A stretch of DNA of 64,000 bases from Escherichia phage vB_EcoM_ESCO32, in the sequence record OM386658.1; one strand, 5' to 3'. The first letter of the stretch is position 1. Each line of letters begins with the position of its first letter. The position numbers and the translations under genes were made by a program. Positions 10,595 to 63,627 of this stretch are shown here, one piece after another. The notes under the pieces are model-generated. The model was not told where the DNA came from and made no database searches. It saw only the letters and a program-made list of their open reading frames with translations.

Positions 10595-11257
10595 ATGAAG
10601 TTTGTACTGTATCATCGACTTTCTAAGAAGAAACAACAAGGCAACCAGTATGGTATAGAATCACAGGAAGCAGATATCCAACGCTTCCTGGATTCACAAG
10701 AAAATTATACTATTGTAGGTAGCTTTGCAGAGTTTTATTCTGGTAAAGGCGATTGGAAGCAACGTAGAGAGCTTGTAAAAGCTGTTAATCTTTGCAAAGA
10801 AACAGGTGCTACACTTGTTGTTGCTAAGGTTGACCGTCTGGGACGTAACACAGCTTCTGTTGCAACCTTGTTAGAGATGATTAATGTACGGATAGCAACT
10901 ATGCCCTCCGCTGAAAATATGATAATAAATATTTTAGCAGTTCTGGCAGAAGAAGAGGCTCGTGCAATATCTGATCGTGTTAAGAAGAGCCTTAAGGTAG
11001 CAAAAGCGAAGGGAACGCTTCTTGGTGCAGCAAACCCTAAATACAAAAGAACAGATTATACGAAAACGGAAGAAGCAAAACGCTCAAGAGAGTTTGCGCT
11101 TTCTTTAAAAGATTCTTTAGTTGCATACAGAGCTTGTAAAACGCCATATATGACGATTGCAAAGCATCTGAATGAATCAGGAAAGAGAACTATTCGTGGG
11201 AGTTTGTTCGATGCCAAAGCGGTACAACGTCTTTGTGCAAAATTGAATATTAAATAA
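10595..11257 (+). CDS. serine recombinase (resolvase/invertase family)
   Basis: 220 aa; N-terminal YHRLSKKKQ with catalytic Ser, VAKVDRLGRN matches the resolvase DRLGR motif, AVLAEEEARAISDRVKKSLKVAKAKG region, C-terminal HTH-like tail. Confidence 0.8.
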   Translation: MKFVLYHRLSKKKQQGNQYGIESQEADIQRFLDSQENYTIVGSFAEFYSGKGDWKQRRELVKAVNLCKETGATLVVAKVDRLGRNTASVATLLEMINVRIATMPSAENMIINILAVLAEEEARAISDRVKKSLKVAKAKGTLLGAANPKYKRTDYTKTEEAKRSREFALSLKDSLVAYRACKTPYMTIAKHLNESGKRTIRGSLFDAKAVQRLCAKLNIK

Positions 11258-12064: not shown

Positions 12065-12391
12065 ATGAAAATAACGACAGAACAGGCTTTAATAGACAAA
12101 GGAAGGGAAATCTTAGAAAGTCATTTGGAGGATATTCAAAGGACTCCAGGGTATCTCGGCTGGCGTATACAAGAAGCCGTCGATTTTCTACCCCGTAAAA
12201 ATAAAGAGATTGAAGTAAGATCTCTATTCCTCCTTGTTAAAGTAGATGGTGACGCTATATACAAAGATGTAGCGTCTCACATTGAACAAATAGAAGAAAA
12301 AGCCTACAAAGAATTTGCAGATCTTGTTGTAGAACATAATATAGAAGGTAAAGTTAATATCTTTATACTTATGGATTTTGAGGAGAGTTGA
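12065..12391 (+). CDS. hypothetical protein
   Basis: Track ORF; AAGGAG SD. Confidence 0.6.
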   Translation: MKITTEQALIDKGREILESHLEDIQRTPGYLGWRIQEAVDFLPRKNKEIEVRSLFLLVKVDGDAIYKDVASHIEQIEEKAYKEFADLVVEHNIEGKVNIFILMDFEES

Positions 12392-13134
12392 TGTTAGTAT
12401 ATCAAGAAATTAGTGTAAAAGATGATCAAGACCTGTTTATTATTGGTGATTTACATGGTTGCTTTGATTTGTATCAGAAGGGTGTTAATACTTTAGGTAT
12501 CCGAGATCAAGATGTTGTTGTATCTTTAGGAGATCTTACAGATCGCGGCAAGCAGAATTTTCGTTGTGTTGTTGAATTCACCAGAAAGCTAAATCGTTAT
12601 GGTATTCGTGGAAATCATGAAGATATGATGATTAAAGGGTTGCTAGAAGGTGATAGACGATATTACGAATGTTGGTTTCAGAACGGAGGCCATACAGTTC
12701 TAGACGAGTGTGGAGAAGAGGGTGCAACTGCTCTTGCTTTGATGCTAGAAGATTTACCTGTTGTACTTGTTGTCAATTATCGTAATATGAAACTAGGCTT
12801 TATTCACGGTGGGTATCCTTCAGTTTTGGAACATTTACCAGTAACAGAAGTTTTGCCATTTTGTTTGAATATGAATAAAGAGCAAGTTTCTCGATTCACA
12901 GAATCTTTAATGTGGGATCGTGATATGATAGATTGCGCACTTGAAGGGATTCTTCTTCCTAGGGTTTCAGGAGTAGATTATGTATTTCACGGGCATTCTT
13001 ATGTTCCTAAACCTGTAATTAGCAGTAATAGGGTATATATGGACACAGGATCTTGCTTCAATGGTAATTTAACCTTTGCATATTTTGATGATTCAAATAC
13101 GTTACAATTTTATTCTACTTTAGAGGAGGATTAA
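12391..13134 (+). CDS. Ser/Thr protein phosphatase (calcineurin-like metallophosphoesterase, lambda-PPase type)
   Basis: Motifs GDLHGC, GDLTDRG, GNHE in canonical order; ATG 12391 after GAGGAG. Confidence 0.8.
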   Translation: MLVYQEISVKDDQDLFIIGDLHGCFDLYQKGVNTLGIRDQDVVVSLGDLTDRGKQNFRCVVEFTRKLNRYGIRGNHEDMMIKGLLEGDRRYYECWFQNGGHTVLDECGEEGATALALMLEDLPVVLVVNYRNMKLGFIHGGYPSVLEHLPVTEVLPFCLNMNKEQVSRFTESLMWDRDMIDCALEGILLPRVSGVDYVFHGHSYVPKPVISSNRVYMDTGSCFNGNLTFAYFDDSNTLQFYSTLEED

Positions 13135-13454
13135 TGTATAAAATCACAATTAAAGAAACAGTAGGAGAACTTACGAAAGAAACTACTATTGAGACGGAAG
13201 ATGTTGAGTTAGTCCAAGAGCTTTTATTTCCAAAACCAGAAATAAAAGACAATGATGAACAGTTGGATGAAGATAATGAGACAGCAAGGGATAAATGGAA
13301 GAAACAATTAGCGGAGATTTGGAAAAAGCCTGAAGTAACTCCTCCATACGATCCTCGTAGACCTTATTATCCTTGGGAAATTGGAAGCCCTTGGTTTACG
13401 TACCCTATTACTCCAATTGTTAATCCAATTGTTACTCCCAATATTACTTGTTAA
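13134..13454 (+). CDS. hypothetical Pro-rich protein
   Basis: Track ORF; GGAGG SD. Confidence 0.5.
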   Translation: MYKITIKETVGELTKETTIETEDVELVQELLFPKPEIKDNDEQLDEDNETARDKWKKQLAEIWKKPEVTPPYDPRRPYYPWEIGSPWFTYPITPIVNPIVTPNITC

Positions 13455-13464
13455 GGAGAAAACC

Positions 13465-14043
13465 ATGAGCGATTTATTCTACACAGGTGTTGGTAGCAGA
13501 GATATTACAGACGAAGAATGGGATACTATGGTATCTGTTGCAAAATGGTTATCTACATGGTTCATTTTGCGGTCTGGTAAAGCAGAAGGTGCAGATTCCG
13601 CATTTGAATGCGGGGTATATGATAGTGGGAACAATACGAAGAAAGAAATATACATCCCTTGGCTCTCGTTTAAAGGTAATGAGATAGAGGGAGAGGTTAT
13701 TGTTCTTGACAGACCAGATAGTGTAAACTATGCTTTAACCTTACAATATGCAAAAGAATTGCATCCAGCTTGGGACAGATTATCTCAAGGTGCTAAAAAA
13801 TTACATCAAAGAAATATCCACCAAGTTCTTGGAAGAGATCTTGAGAATCCAAAACCATCTTGTTTTCTTTTAGCTTGTGCAAATACAGATAAAAATGGAG
13901 ATCCTTTAGGTGGTACAAGAACAGCTTGGATGTTGGCTAAAAAGTTTAATGTCCCTTGTTTTAATATTCGAGGTAAAAGTAAAAAACAAATTTTCGAATT
14001 TATTAAGCCTATTTTAGAGGAGAATGGTCTTGTCCAGAAATAA
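13465..14043 (+). CDS. DprA/Smf-like (SLOG Rossmann) protein
   Basis: Track ORF trimmed to ATG 13465 after AAGGAG; GVGSRDITDEE...LRSGKAEGADSAFE fits the GSR...SG.A.G.D pattern of DprA/LOG-type Rossmann domains. Confidence 0.5.
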   Translation: MSDLFYTGVGSRDITDEEWDTMVSVAKWLSTWFILRSGKAEGADSAFECGVYDSGNNTKKEIYIPWLSFKGNEIEGEVIVLDRPDSVNYALTLQYAKELHPAWDRLSQGAKKLHQRNIHQVLGRDLENPKPSCFLLACANTDKNGDPLGGTRTAWMLAKKFNVPCFNIRGKSKKQIFEFIKPILEENGLVQK

Positions 14044-15297: not shown

Positions 15298-16287
15298 ATG
15301 AAAGTTTTAAGTCTTTTTGATGGTATGTCAGGAGGAATGCTTGCGCTAAAAAGTGCAGGTATTGAAGTAGATACATATTATGCTTCAGAATTAGACAAAT
15401 TCGCCATAGCTGAAAGCCAAGCAAATTTTCCAGATATTATTCAGTTAGGTGATGTTACAAAATGGAGAGAATGGGATATTCCGTGGGGAGAAATTGATCT
15501 TTTGTTAGGTGGTAGTCCGTGTCAAGGCTTCTCTTCTTCTGGTAAGGGTTTGAACTTTCAAGATCCGCGATCTAAGCTATTCTTCGAATATGTTGAGATT
15601 CTTGAACATATTAAAAAGTTTAACCCTAATGTTAAGTTCATGCTTGAAAACGTTAAGATGAAAGTGGAGTGGGAAAACGTGATCACAAGTTACTTAGGTG
15701 TTGATCCCGTATTCATTAACTCCGCAGATTTCACGGCACAAAATAGACAACGTTTATACTGGTGCAACTGGGAAATAAAACCTTGGGATATTACCAATGA
15801 AGTGTTGCAAGATATCATTGAAGATGATAGTATCGTAGACAGAGATAAGGCTTATTGCATAGATGCAAATTATGCCAAAGGTGGTAATATAGAACAGTAT
15901 TTTGAAAAGAGTCGCAGACAACTGGTTTTTTATCCGGCAGCAATATATGGGCGTAGAATTAATGAAAATGGTAAACGTAGTACATCTAAAACTGATCGTT
16001 TGGTACATTGTTTGGAAGTTCAGGACAGTGAAAAAACTCGTTGCCTCACGACTGTGCCTAAAGACGTACTATTAGCCTACATTCCACCTGGAAGATATCT
16101 AGATGCCTTTGAAAAATTGAGTGAAGGCGTACATTATAGAAAGTTAACGGTTAAAGAGTGTTGCCGCTTGCAAGGTGTGCCAGATGATTACTTTAAAGTG
16201 AGTAGTAACACACAAGCATATAAGATGTTAGGCAATGGTTGGACTATACCTGTCATTGCACATATTCTTAAATGTATGGAGGAATAA
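15298..16287 (+). CDS. DNA (cytosine-5)-methyltransferase
   Basis: 329 aa; motif I LSLFDGMSGG, motif IV GGSPCQGFS, motif VI ENV, C-terminal RLQGVPDDY and GNGW. Confidence 0.85.
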   Translation: MKVLSLFDGMSGGMLALKSAGIEVDTYYASELDKFAIAESQANFPDIIQLGDVTKWREWDIPWGEIDLLLGGSPCQGFSSSGKGLNFQDPRSKLFFEYVEILEHIKKFNPNVKFMLENVKMKVEWENVITSYLGVDPVFINSADFTAQNRQRLYWCNWEIKPWDITNEVLQDIIEDDSIVDRDKAYCIDANYAKGGNIEQYFEKSRRQLVFYPAAIYGRRINENGKRSTSKTDRLVHCLEVQDSEKTRCLTTVPKDVLLAYIPPGRYLDAFEKLSEGVHYRKLTVKECCRLQGVPDDYFKVSSNTQAYKMLGNGWTIPVIAHILKCMEE

Positions 16288-17616: not shown

Positions 17617-18429
17617 ATGCGAAGAGTAATTTTTGTTAGTGGCGCAGGTTTAAGTGCAGACAGTGGGATTCGAACGTTCCGAACAGACACAGATAGTGGT
17701 CGTGCCTTATGGGAAGAATATGACTTAGAAGAGGTCTGCGATATTGGAGCTTTCCAAGCAGGTTATCGTGTGAGAACATCTCCAGATCTTCCAGTGGTCG
17801 GTGGTGTAGACGAGAACGGTATGGACTTGTATGCCAAAACACACGAATTTTATAACAAAAGACGTGTTGAGCTTAAAGATGTACAACCTAATGCTGCACA
17901 TATTCAAATAGCAAGGTGGTTTAAGGAATATCCTAACCAAGTAGTAAACTTGACAACAAACGTTGATGACCTACTAGAGCGAGCAGGTGTAGACAGGGAT
18001 TCTGTTATTCACGTGCACGGATATCTTCCTGAAGTAGTTTACCGTATGCATCCTGGAGATTACAAAACACTGGTAGACATTGGTTACAATAGTATAAACA
18101 TAGATGATTATAACTGGGTGAAGCCTAATGTTGTATTTTTTGGTGAGGCTGCACCTTTGTATGCAGATATGGCTCACTTGTTTGATACTTTGACCATGCA
18201 AGATTTGGTTGTTGTAGTAGGATGTTCAAACCAAGTTATCAATTTTAATTGGGAATTATTCCCTGCACTTAATATGGGTACAAAAATGATCGTTGTTAAC
18301 CCAGGAATTAATTACGAAGAAACTCTTCTTTACGAAGATAGAGGAGTCTTTGTTTATAGAGAAAAGGCAGCAGATGCTTTTAGCAATCCTGCTTTCATAA
18401 AAATGATAGAAGATCATTTGACTAAGTAA
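17617..18429 (+). CDS. Sir2-family (sirtuin-like) NAD-binding protein
   Basis: 270 aa; N-terminal VIFVSGAGLSADSGIRTFR matches the Sir2 GAGISxxxGIPxFR motif; GGAG SD. Confidence 0.7.
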   Translation: MRRVIFVSGAGLSADSGIRTFRTDTDSGRALWEEYDLEEVCDIGAFQAGYRVRTSPDLPVVGGVDENGMDLYAKTHEFYNKRRVELKDVQPNAAHIQIARWFKEYPNQVVNLTTNVDDLLERAGVDRDSVIHVHGYLPEVVYRMHPGDYKTLVDIGYNSINIDDYNWVKPNVVFFGEAAPLYADMAHLFDTLTMQDLVVVVGCSNQVINFNWELFPALNMGTKMIVVNPGINYEETLLYEDRGVFVYREKAADAFSNPAFIKMIEDHLTK

Positions 18430-31658: not shown

Positions 31659-31675
31659 TGATAATGATTATCATT
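31659..31675. promoter_or_regulatory. Fur-box-like palindrome (best copy)
   Basis: ctGATAATGATTATCATTtgc matches 16 of 19 positions of Fur consensus GATAATGATAATCATTATC; preceded by GATAAC hexamer. Confidence 0.45.
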
Positions 31676-44221: not shown

Positions 44222-44332
44222 AAATGAGAAAATTCTCATTTGCTAATGATTCTCATTCTCTTACTGAGAATGATTATCACTTACATAGTTAAATGATAAT
44301 GATTCTCATTTACAAATGAGAATCATTATCAT
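44222..44332. promoter_or_regulatory. cluster of five Fur-box-like palindromes
   Basis: AAATGAGAAAATTCTCATTT; TAATGATTCTCATT; GAGAATGATTATCACTT; GATAATGATTCTCATTTAC (15 of 19 to Fur consensus); AATGAGAATCATTATCAT. Confidence 0.45.
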
Positions 44333-44354
44333 ACGCACACCTATAAAAACACGA

Positions 44355-44557
44355 AATTGAACTTTTCATTTTTGATTTTTCTACGGAAAAAGGCAAAAAA
44401 ACTTTAAATAAACTGGGGAATTTTTAAAAAATTGAAGTTTTCATTTTCTAAACCTGGATAGAAATACGTACAAAAACTTTAAATAATTTTGACCAAACTT
44501 GAACTTTTCATTTTCTAAATTTGTACCCAAAAATCTGTAAAAACTTTAAATAATTTT
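44355..44557. repeat. three tandem direct repeats of a 66-76 bp unit
   Basis: Each unit has TTGAA(C/G)TTTTCATTTT and AAAAACTTTAAATAA boxes separated by about 22 variable nt; approx. Confidence 0.55.
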
Positions 44558-44772
44558 GTCCTTTTTATAAAAATGATTTTACTGTTCTGTTATAAATAGT
44601 AGCTAAGAGATAATGTGTCTTTTAAAAACCAAATAGCATAGTCCAACAAACAAATTAAATAATTTATTAACAGAGTACAAAATAATACTTACTCTGGATA
44701 TATTATTCAGAGGGTGAATTTCCGTACATGAAACCCACACCCCTTTTTATAAAAATAAAAATTTTCAAAATA

Positions 44773-45324
44773 TCAGGAAATATCAGATTGTGCTTTTAGA
44801 TAAACAGCAAGGTCTGTATGCCATTTTCCTAAAAGATTTTGTCCTTTCCAACAGTCCTTATTTTCCACATCACGATCCCACATCCCCATTTTGATACCAT
44901 AAATAGAATCATAAGGGCTTGCCTCTACGAACTCCTTATCGGCGTAAGCAATAAGTTTATTTTTGAGATCTTCATTTTGTGTGTATTTAAGATACAAACC
45001 ACGCTTGACAATCTTCTCTCGTAAAGAAGTCCAGGTATCTTCATCATAATCTTTAACTAATCTGCCTAGTCGCTTATAATATGCTTGTTCTTTTTCTCCT
45101 GTATATCTTAGACCTCCGGTTAAAATAGAAGATGCAATGTTGTAATCATAAAATAAACATGCTTTTCTCCACATCATATATTGTTCCACACAAGTAAATT
45201 CAACAGAACTTGTAATAGAATTATTATACTTGGGAGCTAAAGGTTCAATAAAAGATGATAGATACCAGTTGCTAAATTCATCTTTTGCCGAGAAGAAGAA
45301 CACATACTTATCAGTAATCCGCAT
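44773..45324 (-). CDS. NADAR-domain protein (YbiA/DUF1768-like)
   Basis: 183 aa; FSNWY...VEQYMMWRKACLF...GQNLLGKWHTDL resemble YbiA/NADAR motifs FSNF...SEHYFQAQKF...N.LG; AAGGAGG SD. Confidence 0.55.
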   Translation of the reverse strand: MRITDKYVFFFSAKDEFSNWYLSSFIEPLAPKYNNSITSSVEFTCVEQYMMWRKACLFYDYNIASSILTGGLRYTGEKEQAYYKRLGRLVKDYDEDTWTSLREKIVKRGLYLKYTQNEDLKNKLIAYADKEFVEASPYDSIYGIKMGMWDRDVENKDCWKGQNLLGKWHTDLAVYLKAQSDIS

Positions 45325-46503
45325 TTACACCTCCTTACTGTATACTAACTTGCCACCATGTTGTGTAATAATTTTTTGAAGATTTTCCAAATCAGAAGCA
45401 CTTACTGTTTCTGTATGACCATCTTTCAACTCTCTTGCTGTTAAAATACCAGTTTTTAGTTTTTTCTTTATAGCTCTTTCAGCAGCCTTACACTGTTTCA
45501 CTGTACTAAAATCATATAAACAAATACGCTCCATAAAAAACATATTATGCCTATTTTGATTGTTTAATCGCCTGTCACTATCTTTAGCTATGCCAAACTT
45601 AAGAGCAACTATAATATCATTATCTTTAACAATATTAATATATAATTGCTGTTGACTATGACCTGCACATTGTGGACAACCTTGACCGTGGCTTAATAAG
45701 TTATTAACACGCCCTATCTGCTCCCCATGCACAAGACAAAGATATTTAAACTTACCTGTAGAAGATGGTTTGGTAATCCAATCTACCCAGACATACCCTT
45801 TCCCTTCTACTTCCTTTTTTACCCTATAGGTGATCTGGTCTTCTGTATACTGATAGTTCCCACAACGACACGGAATGTACCCTTGTTTAAGGCGATTTCC
45901 TTTAGAGTAAAATTTACCATCACAAACACCTGCTTGAACATATTCATCATGAGAGCAAACAGGACATTCAACCATCCAGGTAATATGCCTACATCCTTTA
46001 CCCCGTGTTCCTGTGTTAGTGAAGATAGTGCCTTCCTTAAATTTCCCTGTAGAAAAGAAACCTGCAATATGTTGATCGTCGGACATTGTTTGTTTCTCCC
46101 TCCTACATTGTGGACAACCTCGACCGACTTTAAATTGATCAATTGCTGTACTTTGCCATCTATTCCCACAATGGCACAACAAATCAAGTTTTGTGTAACA
46201 CCCTTTCCATTCTCCAACGTACCCTAATACTTGATACTCCTTCTTCTGTGCTATCTCTTCCAAGATCGGTAATTCTGCTTCCCATGTTAACGGCTTATTC
46301 CTTGCACATGTCGGACAACCACGTCCATTCTTAAAATCATTAATGCTCGTGGTGTTCCATTCTCCATGATCAGAGCAAGATAGCTTAAGTTTAGTCTTGT
46401 TCCCTTTCCATTCTCCCGTCCATCCTAAGATTTGGATTTGCTTACTCTCTGCTATTGGTTGACACTCTTCTTTATATTGTTCCCATGATTTTGGTGCTAC
46501 CAT
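45325..46503 (-). CDS. putative nuclease: triplicated Zn-ribbon repeats plus C-terminal GIY-YIG-like (T5orf172-type) domain
   Basis: 392 aa; three repeats of G(W/Y)xGEWKG..TKLxLxC...GRGCPxC; C-terminal LYINIVKDNDIIVALKFGIAKDSDRRL resembles the T5orf172 pattern. Confidence 0.5.
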   Translation of the reverse strand: MVAPKSWEQYKEECQPIAESKQIQILGWTGEWKGNKTKLKLSCSDHGEWNTTSINDFKNGRGCPTCARNKPLTWEAELPILEEIAQKKEYQVLGYVGEWKGCYTKLDLLCHCGNRWQSTAIDQFKVGRGCPQCRREKQTMSDDQHIAGFFSTGKFKEGTIFTNTGTRGKGCRHITWMVECPVCSHDEYVQAGVCDGKFYSKGNRLKQGYIPCRCGNYQYTEDQITYRVKKEVEGKGYVWVDWITKPSSTGKFKYLCLVHGEQIGRVNNLLSHGQGCPQCAGHSQQQLYINIVKDNDIIVALKFGIAKDSDRRLNNQNRHNMFFMERICLYDFSTVKQCKAAERAIKKKLKTGILTARELKDGHTETVSASDLENLQKIITQHGGKLVYSKEV

Positions 46504-46540: not shown

Positions 46541-46566
46541 AAAACCCGCCGGAGCGGGTTTTTATT
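46541..46566. terminator. bidirectional rho-independent terminator
   Basis: AACCCGC-cgga-GCGGGTT hairpin flanked by A and T runs, downstream of gene 46578..47705. Confidence 0.6.
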
Positions 46567-46577
46567 TGCTGGCTTAC

Positions 46578-47705
46578 TTAAAACACGCTTGCCAAAGTTG
46601 CACCATTGGTGATAGTTGGTTCCAGAACAATACGGAAAGAATCTTCTGGATCATCACTAAACACAACGATTTTACCACCTGTAATAAGATCTGCTTTCAT
46701 TTTTGTCGCATTCAATGGAATTCGAGCATCGCCTTCATCATCAAAAACCACGTAAGAGCTATTAGCAAGGGCTTCTTTAGAGTCTGCATCACTTGGAGAT
46801 GACAAGTACACGTCTAGTGTGCACGAGCCACCTAAAAAGATTGCAGGTGTAAAGTTATGCCAACTAGATACCCAGCTAACTTTCTGAAGTTTTCCATTAA
46901 TAACAACGCTACTGATATCCCATTTATTACCCCCACCCAAAGAAACGCCCATCATAGAGATACATTCTTTAAAGGATAAATCAGGGTAGAAATTAAGTTC
47001 TTCTACTATACCTTGGATCACATCAAAGGACAACTCTAAACTTACATCCCAAAGTCTTTGGAAATTATCAAAGTGTGCTTTGTTATCCAGGTTTTTATCT
47101 AAATAGTCAATCATAGTTTCTAGTGAGATTTTATCATAATTAAAATTATAAAACACACGACTAGGACGATTTAAAAAGAATTCAGAGATAAAACCACTGT
47201 TTTTAGTCAGAATAAACAGTTTATTACCACTGCCAGTACCATCTAACAAAGTGAGAAGTGCTTCTTGATCTTGTTTCTTCTCATACACTTTATCAAACTC
47301 GTCAAAAATAATCACTGCTTTGTCGGTGATCTTGCTAATAAGTTCAATGAAATTAGCATCACTGTAGGCTTGAGTAACCATAATAGTAGGAATACCTTCT
47401 TCTACAAGGTCACGACTAATGAGTTTGGCTAACATAGTTTTACCACTACCCTTAGTTCCTGTCAGAAGCAATCCTGTATTTTTACCTTGTGCACTCCGGC
47501 GATGGAATGTACGGATAACGTGATTTGCTCGTTTTTCTGTTTCACCATACAGAACATCCGGTACACCTGTCAGATTACCACGGCTTAAAAAATAATTGCC
47601 AAGGGGATCACGACTAACAGTATAGAATCCAGGTGGAAGATAGTTAGATTCCACGCCCATATCTTTATTTACACTTACAATATCACCATAAATCGTGTAT
47701 TTCAT
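46578..47705 (-). CDS. P-loop (AAA-like) ATPase, paralogue of 62467..63627
   Basis: 375 aa; Walker A GTKGSGKT, Walker B IIFDEFD; collinear similarity to the 62467..63627 product. Confidence 0.65.
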   Translation of the reverse strand: MKYTIYGDIVSVNKDMGVESNYLPPGFYTVSRDPLGNYFLSRGNLTGVPDVLYGETEKRANHVIRTFHRRSAQGKNTGLLLTGTKGSGKTMLAKLISRDLVEEGIPTIMVTQAYSDANFIELISKITDKAVIIFDEFDKVYEKKQDQEALLTLLDGTGSGNKLFILTKNSGFISEFFLNRPSRVFYNFNYDKISLETMIDYLDKNLDNKAHFDNFQRLWDVSLELSFDVIQGIVEELNFYPDLSFKECISMMGVSLGGGNKWDISSVVINGKLQKVSWVSSWHNFTPAIFLGGSCTLDVYLSSPSDADSKEALANSSYVVFDDEGDARIPLNATKMKADLITGGKIVVFSDDPEDSFRIVLEPTITNGATLASVF

Positions 47706-54591: not shown

Positions 54592-55068
54592 ATGTCTAAA
54601 CGTTTTGGTCGTAATCAAAAAAGAAAGTTAAGTGCTCAACTAGCAGCTTTGCAAAAAGAGGTTAACACTTTACAAAAAAGTGTTTGTGAACTTAAGGAAC
54701 AAAACCAACTTGAAAAAGAGTGTATCCAGCTTACACAGGAAGTTATTGGTGAGTATTTTCCTTCACTAGTTCCTAAGAAGGTGGCTCTTAGGGAAAATCT
54801 ACCTTTTACCTTGTCCTTAATGCAAGCAAATGATAGATTCCAAACTGAAACTGATGATTTGATGTTTGCAATGCATCAATTACATGGTTTAGAATATACA
54901 GCACAAGTGGATAAACTTCGTAACATGTTATATGTGCGGGTAGAAACACCTAAAGGTGAGACAGTAGCTTTTAATTATAATTTCCAACAGCTACCTGATC
55001 ATATTATTGAACAAATTTTAAAACGAGATTTTGTTCCTATGCTTGTTAAACAAATTAAGAGAGGTTGA
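54592..55068 (+). CDS. hypothetical protein
   Basis: Track ORF; AGGGGGAAA SD. Confidence 0.55.
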   Translation: MSKRFGRNQKRKLSAQLAALQKEVNTLQKSVCELKEQNQLEKECIQLTQEVIGEYFPSLVPKKVALRENLPFTLSLMQANDRFQTETDDLMFAMHQLHGLEYTAQVDKLRNMLYVRVETPKGETVAFNYNFQQLPDHIIEQILKRDFVPMLVKQIKRG

Positions 55069-55069
55069 A

Positions 55070-57844
55070 ATGGCTAAGAAAGAGTTGAGCTTCACTCCGA
55101 CAGAAGAGCAAACAGCTATTAAGGAGGCTTTTCCAGACCATCGCTTTTTAACTATCCAAGCTAAATCTGGGTCAGGCAAAACGTCAACACTTTATTTGCT
55201 GGCTAACAGTACAGAAGATCGCATTCTTTACTTAGCTTTCAATAAAAGCATGGCAGAAGAAGCACGACGTAAGATGCCACTAAATGTAGAATGCCGTACA
55301 TTGCATTCTATTTGCTATCAATTCCTGGATCATCGTTTACGTGCAAAACTGTCACGACCAGAAGGACAGTATGTTAACGTTGCAGGTACAGGTAGTGAGA
55401 TAGCAAAGAAATTTAAGATTAATAATCTTATTGATAAACGAGGGAAAACACTTTTAACTCGTGCTATGATCGGTTTAATGATCAAGCAAACCGTAGGTAA
55501 GTTTGAATTTTCGGATGATCCTTTTATCAGCCGTAAACATTTTCCTAGTGTACATCTTGCAGATATTAAAAGAAAAGGTATTAACGAACACAAACTAATT
55601 ACAGAAGTAGTTAAGTATGCAAAACAATTGTGGCGAGAGCGCATCGATCCTAACACAGACACTTTGATGACGCATGACACCTATGTAAAATTGTTTGAAT
55701 TATCTGGTGCTGATCTTGGTTATGATATTATTTTTGGTGATGAATTCCAGGATGTTAACCCTGCATTCTTATCTATTCTGCGAAATGCTAAATCTGCAAA
55801 ACAAATTGTGGTAGTGGGCGATGAATTCCAATGTGTGTCGGAAAACACGGTACTTAATACCGAGAATGGTCAGGTTACAATGAAAGACCTGCAAATCGGT
55901 GATAAGGTAGAGTCTTATTCTAATGGTAAAGTTACATTTAGAAAAGTAACAAATAAGACTTTATCTACACGTACAAAAGGTAGGAATATTATTACTGCCA
56001 CAGGTAAAACTTTAGATATGACACATAACCATCGTATTTGGGCTTCATCCTATGTTCTGAAAGATGATCAGATGGTGGTATACCTAATGTGGAGGAAAGA
56101 TTTAGGTTTCCGAGTAGGGATCACTAACAAATTCGATGATAAAGAAGGTTTTTCTAAACTGGGGCAACGTACACGTTCTGAAAAAGCACAGAAATTGTGG
56201 GTGTTGGATATTGTTGAAAACCGTGAAGCTGCTATGGAAAAAGAAATGGCATACAGTTTACAATATGGCATTCCTACTTGTGTATTTGAAGCAAGTTCAC
56301 GCGGCATTAATCAAGAAAGGATCAATAACATTTTTGAACAATTCGGACAAAACGGTTTTAAACTTTTAGAGGATAAAGATTATCATTTTGCTTATCCACA
56401 TTGGCACAGCATCAATTGTGCAGTAGATGAAAGAAAAATGTTAACAGTGACTTTGCGAGCACAAGGTTGTAAAGGAACACAAGTTAGTTTTGAGTGGACA
56501 GAAAGTGAAATGTCAATCTATGCTTCACTCATTGAAGCAGGTGTAAGCGTAAGTGTTGCTAAGTTGGAAGGTCGTTACCGTGTACGTAAATATTTCAATT
56601 CTTATCGTGAAGCATTGAGTTTTGCACAAAAGATCCTTGAAATAGTGCCGTTTGCATCTTTAAAAGAATGCATGTCCTCTGTGAACACCGCCAAATATAC
56701 TTTAATTCCGGCGGCGGGTTTGTTTAAAGGCATGTCTGTGTTGGTAAAAGATGGTGATACTGTAACGGCAGAAGAAATTGTGGACATTGTAGATAGTGAA
56801 GGTATCTATTATGATATTGAAGTAGAGGATACTGCTAACTTCTTTGGCAATGAAATTCTTAGCCACAACTGCATTTATCAATTTAGAGGTAGCTCTAATA
56901 TGATGATTGAAACAGCTAAGTATGGGGCAGAGCTTCCATTAACTGCTTGCTTCCGTTTTGGCCCCAAAGTGGCAAACATTGCCAATATGATTTTAAGCGA
57001 TAAAGAACCTTTGCGTCATCCTTTGGTTGGTAAAGGCTTTGATACTGTAGTAGGTAGCTACAAATCAGATGTTGTAGACTATACAAAACCTTACACTATC
57101 ATCTTTCGCAAGAATTTAACCTTGCTTATGGAGGCAATGGATCGTATTGCAGATGGGGAAGAAATTATTATTAACGTAGACACCAGGGATTTTATCTCTA
57201 TGGTAGATAGTGTTAATGCTCTTCGGAGAGGAGATATTGAGAAAGTAAAACATGAAACTGTATTACCTTACGCAGACTGGGATGAATTTGTTGAGTGTGC
57301 AGAGGCTGATCCAGATGCTAAACGCTTGTTAAACATTGTAGTTTCTGGTAAGGCAAACACTATAGCACATACACTTAGAACGCATAGAAATTCTCCTACA
57401 GCAAAAGTCACACTGACTACAGCACATAAGTCTAAAGGTTTGGAGTGGGATCAGGTTATTGTTGCTAATGATTTTCCTTCCAATTATGATAAAAAGACTG
57501 GTGAGTGGGTAGGACTAGAAGAGGCAGAGCGAAACCTACTGTATGTAGCGCATACCCGTTGTGTTAAATGCTTACAATGGAACACAACCGTACAGGAGAT
57601 TATAGATATCAACCGTGTTGCAACAGAGAAAGTACCAACAAGCACCACTTTACCGATCAATGGTATTAAACTTGGTGTATTTGGCGCTGGCACATCTCGA
57701 AAAGCTGTAGAAAAATTTGTTGCAGATTCTTTTGATGGTAACTATAATCATGCACAAGCATATGAGAGTTGGCTAGAGGAAGGTGAAGGTGATTTTTTAG
57801 GTGAAATAAATCTTTTACCAGACATAAATAAACTGGTAAACTAA
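55070..57844 (+). CDS. UvrD/PcrA-like superfamily 1 helicase containing an intein
   Basis: Track ORF trimmed to ATG 55070; Walker A AKSGSGKTST, motif II IIFGDEFQD; motif III is split (VVVGDEFQ / CIYQFRGSS) by a 346-aa insertion. Confidence 0.8.
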   Translation: MAKKELSFTPTEEQTAIKEAFPDHRFLTIQAKSGSGKTSTLYLLANSTEDRILYLAFNKSMAEEARRKMPLNVECRTLHSICYQFLDHRLRAKLSRPEGQYVNVAGTGSEIAKKFKINNLIDKRGKTLLTRAMIGLMIKQTVGKFEFSDDPFISRKHFPSVHLADIKRKGINEHKLITEVVKYAKQLWRERIDPNTDTLMTHDTYVKLFELSGADLGYDIIFGDEFQDVNPAFLSILRNAKSAKQIVVVGDEFQCVSENTVLNTENGQVTMKDLQIGDKVESYSNGKVTFRKVTNKTLSTRTKGRNIITATGKTLDMTHNHRIWASSYVLKDDQMVVYLMWRKDLGFRVGITNKFDDKEGFSKLGQRTRSEKAQKLWVLDIVENREAAMEKEMAYSLQYGIPTCVFEASSRGINQERINNIFEQFGQNGFKLLEDKDYHFAYPHWHSINCAVDERKMLTVTLRAQGCKGTQVSFEWTESEMSIYASLIEAGVSVSVAKLEGRYRVRKYFNSYREALSFAQKILEIVPFASLKECMSSVNTAKYTLIPAAGLFKGMSVLVKDGDTVTAEEIVDIVDSEGIYYDIEVEDTANFFGNEILSHNCIYQFRGSSNMMIETAKYGAELPLTACFRFGPKVANIANMILSDKEPLRHPLVGKGFDTVVGSYKSDVVDYTKPYTIIFRKNLTLLMEAMDRIADGEEIIINVDTRDFISMVDSVNALRRGDIEKVKHETVLPYADWDEFVECAEADPDAKRLLNIVVSGKANTIAHTLRTHRNSPTAKVTLTTAHKSKGLEWDQVIVANDFPSNYDKKTGEWVGLEEAERNLLYVAHTRCVKCLQWNTTVQEIIDINRVATEKVPTSTTLPINGIKLGVFGAGTSRKAVEKFVADSFDGNYNHAQAYESWLEEGEGDFLGEINLLPDINKLVN
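55832..56869 (+). mobile_element. intein (346 aa) inserted in helicase motif III
   Basis: Starts with Cys (CVSENTVLN, block A), block B LDMTHNHRIW, C-terminal blocks YYDIEVEDTANFFGNEILSHN ending His-Asn, followed by +1 Cys; size implies an internal endonuclease-like domain. Confidence 0.75.
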
Positions 57845-62466: not shown

Positions 62467-63627
62467 ATGTTTACAGTATTCGGCAATCAAATCTTCCTGC
62501 GTCAGAAATCTGGTACAGATATTGAAGAAATTCCAGCAGGAACTTTTGGTGTAGGTGTTACTCAAAGTGGTGAGTTCTTCCTGTATCCTAAAAACGATAT
62601 GGAAGTGCCTTCAGTAACATACGGTGATACTGATGATAAATCAGAACGTATTATCAAAACGTTCCTTAGCCGCAAAGGTAAAAACACAGGTGTTCTCCTT
62701 GAGGGTACGAAAGGTAGCGGTAAAACTTTGCAAGCTAAAATGCTGTCTTCTGCTCTTCGTGAAATGGGTATTCCTACTATTTCTATCGGCAGTGCTTTTA
62801 ATGGCGAAGGTTTTATCAATTTTATGTCTAAAATCACACAACCTGTGATGATTATGATCGATGAATTTGATAAACTGTATGCTGAAAAAGATGCACAAGA
62901 TGGTTTGCTTACCCTGTTGGATGGTGTTGGTGGCTACGACAAACTGTTTGTATTGACTAAAAATGATGGTTATGTATCAGAATTTTTGCGTAATCGTCCT
63001 AGCCGTATTTTCTACAGTTTTAGCTATAAGAAACTACCTAAAGCTACTATGGATGATTATCTGGCTAAAAATCTGGAGAACAAAGCCTTCTTACCAGATT
63101 TTGAAACGCTTTATAATCTCTCCGTGGATTTGAACTTTGATATTGTTCAGTCATTAGTAGAAGAACTTAACCGTTACCCTAATGACAAATTCTCTGATGC
63201 ACTTGCATTGATGGGTATCAGTATTACTGAACACCGCTATGCTGCAAAAGAGGTTAAACTTCTGAAAGTTAACGGTGTAGATCGTACAGGAGATGTTTCG
63301 TCAGATACCGATATTGACGGTATGACAGCACAAGGTTTGTTTAGCGGTAATCGTTATGTTGTAGCTGTAGACCATAAACTAGGTGAAGAGCATCTTCCTG
63401 AAATGGAAGGGATTGTTACCGTAGAAGATAAAGATGAAGAAGGTGACTACTACTGGGGTGTAGACCGTATCTTGCTAACGTATGATGAAAAACACATTCG
63501 TACAATGGGTGGTGACGGTTATCACTTTATGTTCACCGATGATAAAGGTAACAACATTGAAGTTGTTATTAAAAACAAAGAACGTAAAAACTACACAGAG
63601 TATGTGTTTGGTGGTCGTTCTTACTAA
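62467..63627 (+). CDS. P-loop (AAA-like) ATPase, paralogue of 46578..47705
   Basis: 386 aa; Walker A GTKGSGKT, Walker B IMIDEFD; AGGAG SD. Confidence 0.7.
   Translation: MFTVFGNQIFLRQKSGTDIEEIPAGTFGVGVTQSGEFFLYPKNDMEVPSVTYGDTDDKSERIIKTFLSRKGKNTGVLLEGTKGSGKTLQAKMLSSALREMGIPTISIGSAFNGEGFINFMSKITQPVMIMIDEFDKLYAEKDAQDGLLTLLDGVGGYDKLFVLTKNDGYVSEFLRNRPSRIFYSFSYKKLPKATMDDYLAKNLENKAFLPDFETLYNLSVDLNFDIVQSLVEELNRYPNDKFSDALALMGISITEHRYAAKEVKLLKVNGVDRTGDVSSDTDIDGMTAQGLFSGNRYVVAVDHKLGEEHLPEMEGIVTVEDKDEEGDYYWGVDRILLTYDEKHIRTMGGDGYHFMFTDDKGNNIEVVIKNKERKNYTEYVFGGRSY

Follow-up and report, generated by a model that had tools for sequence, protein, structure and literature searches.

A predicted NADAR ADP-ribosylglycohydrolase in a phi92-like Escherichia coli phage, orthologous to AdfN^Bas60 and probably directed against DarTG1

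The DNA analysed here (the window) is a stretch of 64,000 nucleotides from Escherichia phage vB_EcoM_ESCO32 (record OM386658.1), a phi92-like E. coli myovirus of the genus Justusliebigvirus (Stephanstirmvirinae). Positions 44773..45324 of its minus strand hold an open reading frame (ORF) of 183 amino acids, running from ATG to stop, that is predicted to encode a stand-alone NADAR ADP-ribosylglycohydrolase orthologous to AdfN^Bas60 and Phi92_gp223. The gene has its own signal for translation: the motif AAGGAGG (45330..45336, minus strand), a strong Shine-Dalgarno sequence, was read from the DNA within the final codons of the upstream endonuclease ORF, at a spacing of 5 nt from the NADAR ATG, which is itself abutted by the TAA stop of the endonuclease gene (45325-45327). 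The 5.2 kb around the NADAR gene show 94-96% full-length identity to many Justusliebigvirus myoviruses of E. coli with genomes of ~145-150 kb, including the BASEL phages PaulScherrer (Bas60), EmilieFrey (Bas61) and JohannJBalmer (Bas62).

The 183-aa product matched the Pfam NADAR model PF08719 with E=3.2e-36 and 125.5 bits (gathering cut-off 35.1), the match spanning residues 13-168 of the protein and positions 9-154 of the 163 in the model. Matches were also obtained to phrog_1017 (E=3e-50) and to the NCBIfam model TIGR02464 (109.7 bits, cut-off 73.7), a domain-level equivalog in which YbiA and other Glu-type NADARs are not told apart. The observation is far beyond chance. The original prediction, made from the sequence alone, had described the product as resembling YbiA/NADAR enzymes; the ORF is indeed real, and its NADAR identity was borne out by the profile search and by the predicted fold. 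The exact 183-aa sequence is already present in GenBank as UPW38597.1 of the same phage, in a 90% cluster (n=108) that includes Phi92_gp223 and the Bas62 protein QXV81452.1, annotated as 'putative YbiA-like N-glycosidase'. More than 55 phage records share the gene with an amino-acid identity of at least 95%, the differences being mostly synonymous.

Around the NADAR gene lie genes for a T5orf172 endonuclease and an AAA ATPase, along with others whose small products have no known function. Directly upstream, positions 45325..46503 of the minus strand encode a putative homing-type endonuclease of 392 aa, in which four tandem CapR zinc-finger repeats (PF21817, 131.3 bits against a cut-off of 24.2, in four stretches) are combined with a C-terminal GIY-YIG-related T5orf172 domain (PF10544, 23.8 bits, cut-off 20); the protein also matched phrog_681, 'endonuclease', with E=7e-85. 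Between the AAA ATPase and endonuclease genes, a consensus scan picked out a GC-rich, terminator-like hairpin with a weak T tail (46541..46562, minus strand). Promoter and terminator scans around the locus found about as many matches as expected from shuffled sequence and gave no firm boundaries of transcription units, and in an Rfam scan nothing in the entire window, with the ORF-poor gap that follows the NADAR gene, reached gathering thresholds. Since the NADAR gene belongs to a long run of small genes read leftward, an arrangement typical of early regions, it is probably expressed early.

The endonuclease is the most divergent and most indel-prone gene in the locus. Its length is 392 aa here, 390 in Bas62, 467 in Bas60, 325 in Bas61 and 486 in ESCO13, the differences being indels of whole repeats. 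The zinc-finger part shows 83-94% nucleotide identity to the BASEL phages, with repeat indels of 201-225 nt, whereas the NADAR and ATPase genes are 97-98% identical between the same phages; in the last 110 codons of the endonuclease gene, about half of the substitutions are non-synonymous. Homologues were found in 446 phage records, mostly of phages unrelated to NADAR and including 'putative homing endonucleases' of ICP1. Barth et al. 2023 (PMC10448857) described T5orf172 homing endonucleases with tandem CapR, DUF723 or DUF4379 (also given as DUF4397) zinc fingers, in which the number of repeats shifts by intragenic recombination and which are usually flanked by essential genes. No allele of the exact locus without the endonuclease was found among close relatives, and the gene is presumed mobile from its family membership.

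An AlphaFold2 model of the NADAR protein, built on an alignment of 54 sequences, reached a mean pLDDT of 97.4 and a pTM of 0.91. The best Foldseek match was the NADAR of Phytophthora nicotianae (PnNADAR) in complex with ADP-ribose (8BAU; TM 0.77, E=1e-9), followed by E. coli YbiA (2B3W; TM 0.69), and these two, the two solved NADARs, were the only PDB matches at E<=0.001. Profile score, alpha-helical core fold and catalytic residues together place the protein in the NADAR superfamily PF08719. Seven residues (F10, S18, E47, K54, K84, E134 and D139) are invariant across the 54 homologues, and three of them align with residues shown by mutagenesis to be important in other NADARs. Glu47 (codon 45184..45186, minus strand) corresponds to the conserved ribose-positioning Glu (PnNADAR E43, E. 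coli C7 NADAR E88, T4 AdfN E36), and Lys54 (codon 45163..45165, minus strand) to the conserved diphosphate-binding Lys (PnNADAR K50, C7 NADAR K95, T4 AdfN K43). Glu134 (codon 44923..44925, minus strand) occupies the third catalytic position and is equivalent to PnNADAR E125 and SCO5665 E167, with 'VEAS' of the phage protein aligned to 'YEAS' of 8BAU. The roles of the Glu and Lys are taken from PMC11543638 and PMC11825919, and those of all three positions (ribose positioning, diphosphate binding and catalysis) from Schuller et al. 2023 and a 2026 cytidine study. The third catalytic position is Asp in DarG1-type NADARs and His in T4-type AdfN; Glu134 is neither.

Comparison with the BASEL phages revealed that the NADAR protein is 98-99% identical at the amino-acid level to bas60_0111, bas61_0107 and bas62_0106, differing at three residues from Bas60, at one from Bas61 and at two from Bas62. 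A glycine at position 71, in a surface loop, replaces the Asp found in all four relatives compared; the further substitutions are N62S and A178T relative to Bas60 and D96T relative to Bas62, and all lie outside the conserved positions. The order AAA ATPase, T5orf172 endonuclease, NADAR and AT-rich gap is shared with Bas60, Bas61 and Bas62. Near-identity and genomic position, together with 96% nucleotide identity across the 5.2 kb, place the protein in the orthologous group of AdfN^Bas60, an equivalence drawn through the bas60, bas61 and bas62 locus tags and the sole NADAR match found in each phage genome. Judged by sequence and position, the window gene is the AdfN^Bas60 gene for practical purposes. 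The gene differs from the four relatives by 10-18 nucleotides and by only 1-3 amino acids, a pattern that clearly points to purifying selection.

The NADAR of Bas60, Bas61 and Bas62 was named AdfN^Bas60 by Johannesman et al. (Nat Commun 2025, PMC11825919). In their report, AdfN^Bas60 neutralises the toxicity of DarT1, a guanine-specific DNA ADP-ribosyltransferase, in uninfected E. coli, and its ectopic expression lets three unrelated phages, RB69, T5 and Bas25, reach full titre again on hosts with DarTG1, while it has no effect on the thymidine-modifying defence DarTG2. The same text describes the protein as sufficient alone when supplied from a plasmid, with no other phage factor. The assays found in that text for AdfN^Bas60 are in vivo, the in vitro dot-blot having been performed on T4 AdfN. 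Every NADAR subfamily tested so far hydrolyses guanine-ADP-ribose (guanine-ADPr) in vitro. In the published text searched, as far as it was available, neither a phi92-like phage deleted for this gene nor a challenge of such phages with DarTG1 hosts was found.

By analogy with these data, the window gene very probably encodes an orphan-antitoxin-like NADAR DNA ADP-ribosylglycohydrolase of the Bas60/phi92 AdfN type that counters DarTG1. When a phi92-like phage infects E. coli carrying the DarTG1 toxin-antitoxin defence, DarT1 would transfer ADP-ribose from NAD+ to guanine bases of the phage DNA and block replication; the phage NADAR would then cleave the guanine-ADP-ribose bond, yielding unmodified DNA on which replication could proceed. 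It would act as a stand-alone enzyme, with no need for other phage factors, and would leave the thymidine adducts of DarT2 untouched. The presumed activity of this NADAR in infected cells is to hydrolyse guanine-N2-ADP-ribose directly on the DNA of the phage, and action against DarT1 is its presumed main role in natural infection. A counter-defence function against DNA ADP-ribosylation, which the original prediction had proposed together with a challenge by DarTG-type hosts, remains the best explanation of the gene, and PMC11825919 reports such a challenge for a protein that differs at 1-3 residues.

The protein passes the TIGR02464 cut-off and has a Glu-type site like that of NADARs with broader specificity (guanine and cytidine, and RNA), so DarT1 adducts may not be its sole or main substrate. 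A far-reaching reading would combine a broad nucleic-acid de-ADP-ribosylase for guanine and cytidine adducts of DNA and RNA, which would shield phi92-like phages against ADP-ribosyltransferase (ART) defences beyond DarTG1, with an endonuclease that carries adfN as cargo. This combination is doubtful, and mobilisation of the adfN allele by the endonuclease is in itself unlikely. If true, it would mean that a counter-defence gene is spread between co-infecting phages by homing-driven recombination, and that a homing-endonuclease island has been built around an anti-defence gene and not around an essential one.

As to the substrate, the enzyme might act on cytidine-ADPr in DNA, on guanine-ADPr or cytidine-ADPr in RNA, or on soluble immune signals derived from ADP-ribose, with the anti-DarT1 activity as one facet. 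Glu134 is in keeping with this possibility, since Glu is also the residue of those NADAR-family and YbiA enzymes able to remove cytidine-ADPr as well as guanine-ADPr, whereas the guanine-only DarG1 type has Asp and the T4 type His at this position. Soluble ADP-ribose derivatives were proposed as the targets of phage NADARs by Iyer et al. (PMC9503650). Relatives with ~41-44% identity, moreover, are encoded on large phage-like contigs with genes of the NAD-salvage type, which follow the NADAR gene at 3.7 kb in one locus and directly precede it in the other. The two long contigs examined for a possible cellular origin among the nearest homologues outside the family both looked like large phage genomes, not bacterial chromosomes. 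Against a different substrate stand the activity against DarTG1 demonstrated for the orthologue and the literature surveyed, which knows no cytidine-ADP-ribosylating defence in E. coli. As a replacement for the guanine-directed activity, a broader or different substrate is improbable; as an addition it is plausible and compatible with the DarTG1 explanation.

The guanine-directed, anti-DarTG1 reading assigns no part to the adjacent nuclease, which the original prediction had joined to the NADAR gene as a candidate counter-defence module. The nuclease-like character of the neighbour was upheld by its T5orf172 and phrog_681 matches. The module was not: the neighbour is a homing-type gene that diverges independently of the NADAR gene. 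A joint function, such as the excision and repair of ADP-ribosylated DNA, would suit two ORFs that abut (TAA followed by ATG) on the same strand and are probably co-transcribed. Bas60, Bas61, Bas62 and VivaForever show the same adjacency as the window. It does not hold further out. The locus of the Phapecoctavirus ESCO13 is syntenic (ATPase 64%, endonuclease 39% and NADAR 57% identity), yet its endonuclease and NADAR genes have two small genes between them, and in the Klebsiella phages 05F01 (NADAR 61%) and KPP-1 (45%) no such endonuclease was found within 4 kb of the NADAR homologue. The neighbour is built like a selfish homing endonuclease, from a T5orf172 domain and tandem CapR zinc fingers, and belongs to a family whose 446 records are, as noted above, mostly unrelated to NADAR. 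A functional NADAR-nuclease module is rejected because of the divergence and repeat indels of the endonuclease, the synteny in ESCO13 and the Klebsiella phages, the family identity of the neighbour and the published capacity of AdfN^Bas60 to work alone, and is judged highly improbable. The most likely meaning of the adjacency is that a selfish element has settled beside an accessory gene. The endonuclease shares with the ICP1 gp165/gp174 type the C-terminal T5orf172 domain, the N-terminal tandem CapR repeats and the gain and loss of repeats from allele to allele, and differs from it in adjoining an accessory anti-defence gene instead of essential genes.

Three further genes had been drawn into the proposed repertoire, and all three are present in the window: a Sir2 gene (17617-18429; PF02146, E=3e-22; phrog_2162), a gene for a DprA-like protein (13381-14043; phrog_768, E=1e-59, with no Pfam match at 1e-3) and a gene for a Metallophos/NinI-like phosphatase of the calcineurin type (12388-13134). 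All are 26-32 kb distant from the NADAR gene, on the opposite strand, in a rightward block that also contains ribonucleotide reductase, sugar-nucleotide enzymes, PhoH, HslV and DNA methyltransferases. NADAR, SLOG, Macro, Nudix and sirtuin domains co-occur in large myoviruses and were suggested, from comparative genomics, to form a possible viral NAD+/ADP-ribose network (Iyer et al. 2022, PMC9503650). The functional link of the three genes to the NADAR gene was not sustained, given their distance and the opposite orientation of their block.

A housekeeping role as a YbiA-like N-glycosidase that hydrolyses reactive intermediates of riboflavin biosynthesis would account for the TIGR02464 score and for the several records named 'YbiA-like N-glycosidase' or 'GTP cyclohydrolase II'. 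The homologue profile, however, fits 8BAU (1e-36) far better than YbiA (5e-18), in the same order as the Foldseek matches, and neither a fusion to a riboflavin gene nor such a neighbour was found. PMC11825919 places AdfN^Bas60 outside the YbiA-like group in its tree, and the activity against DarT1 is demonstrated there for the orthologue. The riboflavin N-glycosidase role is rejected as hardly tenable, the protein being closer to a non-YbiA NADAR and lacking a riboflavin context, despite the TIGR02464 match. Barely credible is a self-immunity antitoxin for a phage-encoded ADP-ribosyltransferase, of the kind seen in YarT-YbiA or DarT1-DarG1: NADARs elsewhere do act as antitoxins beside ART toxins and the phage encodes a Sir2-family protein, but the Sir2 gene is 26 kb distant on the other strand, no ART domain was detected in the flanking genes or in the larger ORFs scanned across the window, a part of the ~147-kb genome, and the annotation of the syntenic 64 kb in a relative lists none.

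A protein of 98-99% identity was characterised in a 2025 publication and GenBank already contains the exact sequence, so that the gene is known, as are its family and its counter-defence role. The apt label would be AdfN-type anti-DarTG1 NADAR, where many records say 'hypothetical protein', 'YbiA-like N-glycosidase' or 'GTP cyclohydrolase II'. Because phi92-like phages infect a very broad range of hosts and attract therapeutic interest, a probable enzymatic anti-DarTG1 factor in them is worth knowing of.

Among known NADAR systems, membership of the DS32_2 anti-phage NADARs (NF053876) was rejected (26.1 bits against a cut-off of 240). DarG1 of E. coli C7 and Geobacter lovleyi belongs to the same fold family and performs the reaction presumed for the phage protein, the reversal of guanine ADP-ribosylation by DarT1. 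Membership of the DarG1 family was nevertheless rejected: the phage gene has no adjacent DarT1 gene, its product carries Glu134 instead of Asp and no N-terminal extension (its NADAR core begins near residue 7 of 183), and a homologue-profile search of the PDB returned no DarG1 chain at E<=0.01. E. coli YbiA shares the NADAR fold with the phage protein, which passes TIGR02464, but is the weaker profile match and, unlike AdfN^Bas60, gives no protection against DarT1 in vivo. The best match is to 8BAU and the strict NADAR family (SCO5665 and the NADAR of the E. coli sigma70 operon), with the same Glu/Lys/Glu set; identity to 8BAU is 28%, and the phage protein has extra loops at about residues 26-41 and 70-78, while the cellular proteins of this family are without known anti-defence role. 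AdfN^T4 (gp30.3), the first phage anti-DarTG1 NADAR, belongs to the same superfamily and follows the same counter-defence logic, with E47 and K54 aligned in the profile comparison to its E36 and K43, which Johannesman et al. mutated. It has His at the third position and needs the context of T-even infection, whereas AdfN^Bas60 acts alone and the protein described here has Glu134. Membership of the T4 AdfN family was rejected on this residue and on the near absence of similarity (BLASTP E=2; hhalign probability 17%), and the window-type and T4-type AdfN look like independent acquisitions. Closest of all is AdfN^Bas60 itself, with the same length of 183 aa, 98-99% identity, the same locus and the same genus, from which only 1-3 substitutions set the window protein apart.

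The T5orf172 endonuclease gene, which abuts the NADAR gene, occupies 45325-46503 of the window and has counterparts at four loci of other phages (L001, 11327-12499; L002, 2823-4226; L003, 2823-3800; L007, 1992-3452). Whole CapR zinc-finger repeats have been gained or lost in this protein among phages that are otherwise 96-98% identical, and its size across the compared phages is 325 (Bas61), 390 (Bas62), 392 (the window), 467 (Bas60) or 486 aa (ESCO13). This length variation is an ongoing case of intragenic repeat recombination, which would alter the DNA-binding array of the endonuclease. Directly upstream of the endonuclease-NADAR pair lies an AAA-type ATPase gene (46578-47705), with a paralogue at 62467-63627; over an N-terminal stretch of 254 residues the two proteins share 47% identity, and their C-terminal regions are unrelated. 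No protease domain was detected in these proteins, for which databases give differing names ('FtsH-like protease', 'ATPase or Zn metalloprotease'). In the interval between the ATPase gene and the endonuclease gene, the coding strand has a GC-rich 9-bp hairpin (46541-46562; AAAACCCGCTCCGGCGGGTTTT), possibly an RNA-processing site or partial terminator that delimits the endonuclease-NADAR pair.

NADAR relatives with ~41-44% identity (L009, 4001-4480; L011, 4001-4477) are carried by metagenomic contigs of 310 kb and 456 kb that look like large phage genomes. A NAMPT/NAPRTase gene is located 3.7 kb downstream of the L009 copy; the L011 copy is flanked by GIY-YIG endonuclease genes and immediately preceded by a CTP_transf_like (NMN-adenylyltransferase-type) gene.

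Elsewhere in the window, the 937-aa ORF of a UvrD/Rep-family helicase (55031-57844) contains an intein, with Intein_splicing and Hint matches at residues ~267-613. The VivaForever orthologue has just 578 aa and therefore lacks the intein; thus, the intein shows a presence/absence polymorphism. This lytic myovirus has a gene for a C5 cytosine DNA methyltransferase (15298-16287; PF00145, E=1e-43) and another, at 10595-11257, for a protein of the serine recombinase/resolvase type (PF00239, E=8e-22). Phages of this group were described in the BASEL paper as unusually sensitive to restriction-modification systems.

The AT-rich, ORF-poor gap directly downstream of the NADAR gene harbors two repeat elements. 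Three tandem direct repeats of ~67-75 bp each (44354-44574), all containing the motifs TTGAACTTTTCATTTT and AAAAACTTTAAATAAT, which occur nowhere else in the window, have the appearance of iterons or tandem promoters; they had no match in Rfam, and phages alia and inny carry a 'repeat_region' annotation at the matching position. In the second element (44232-44332), conserved in Bas60, Bas61, Bas62 and VivaForever, a 19-nt inverted repeat without mismatches (ATGATAATGATTCTCATTT / AAATGAGAATCATTATCAT) is accompanied by two additional copies of AATGAGAATCATT. The Fur consensus, allowing <=3 mismatches, has 6 matches in the window versus 0.04 expected, those outside this element being at 31660, 32543 and 56372. 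The element may be a site of Fur- or iron-responsive control, the operator of a phage regulator or an origin element; its inverted repeat and AATGAGAATCATT copies are similar to the Fur boxes of E. coli (GATAATGATAATCATTATC).
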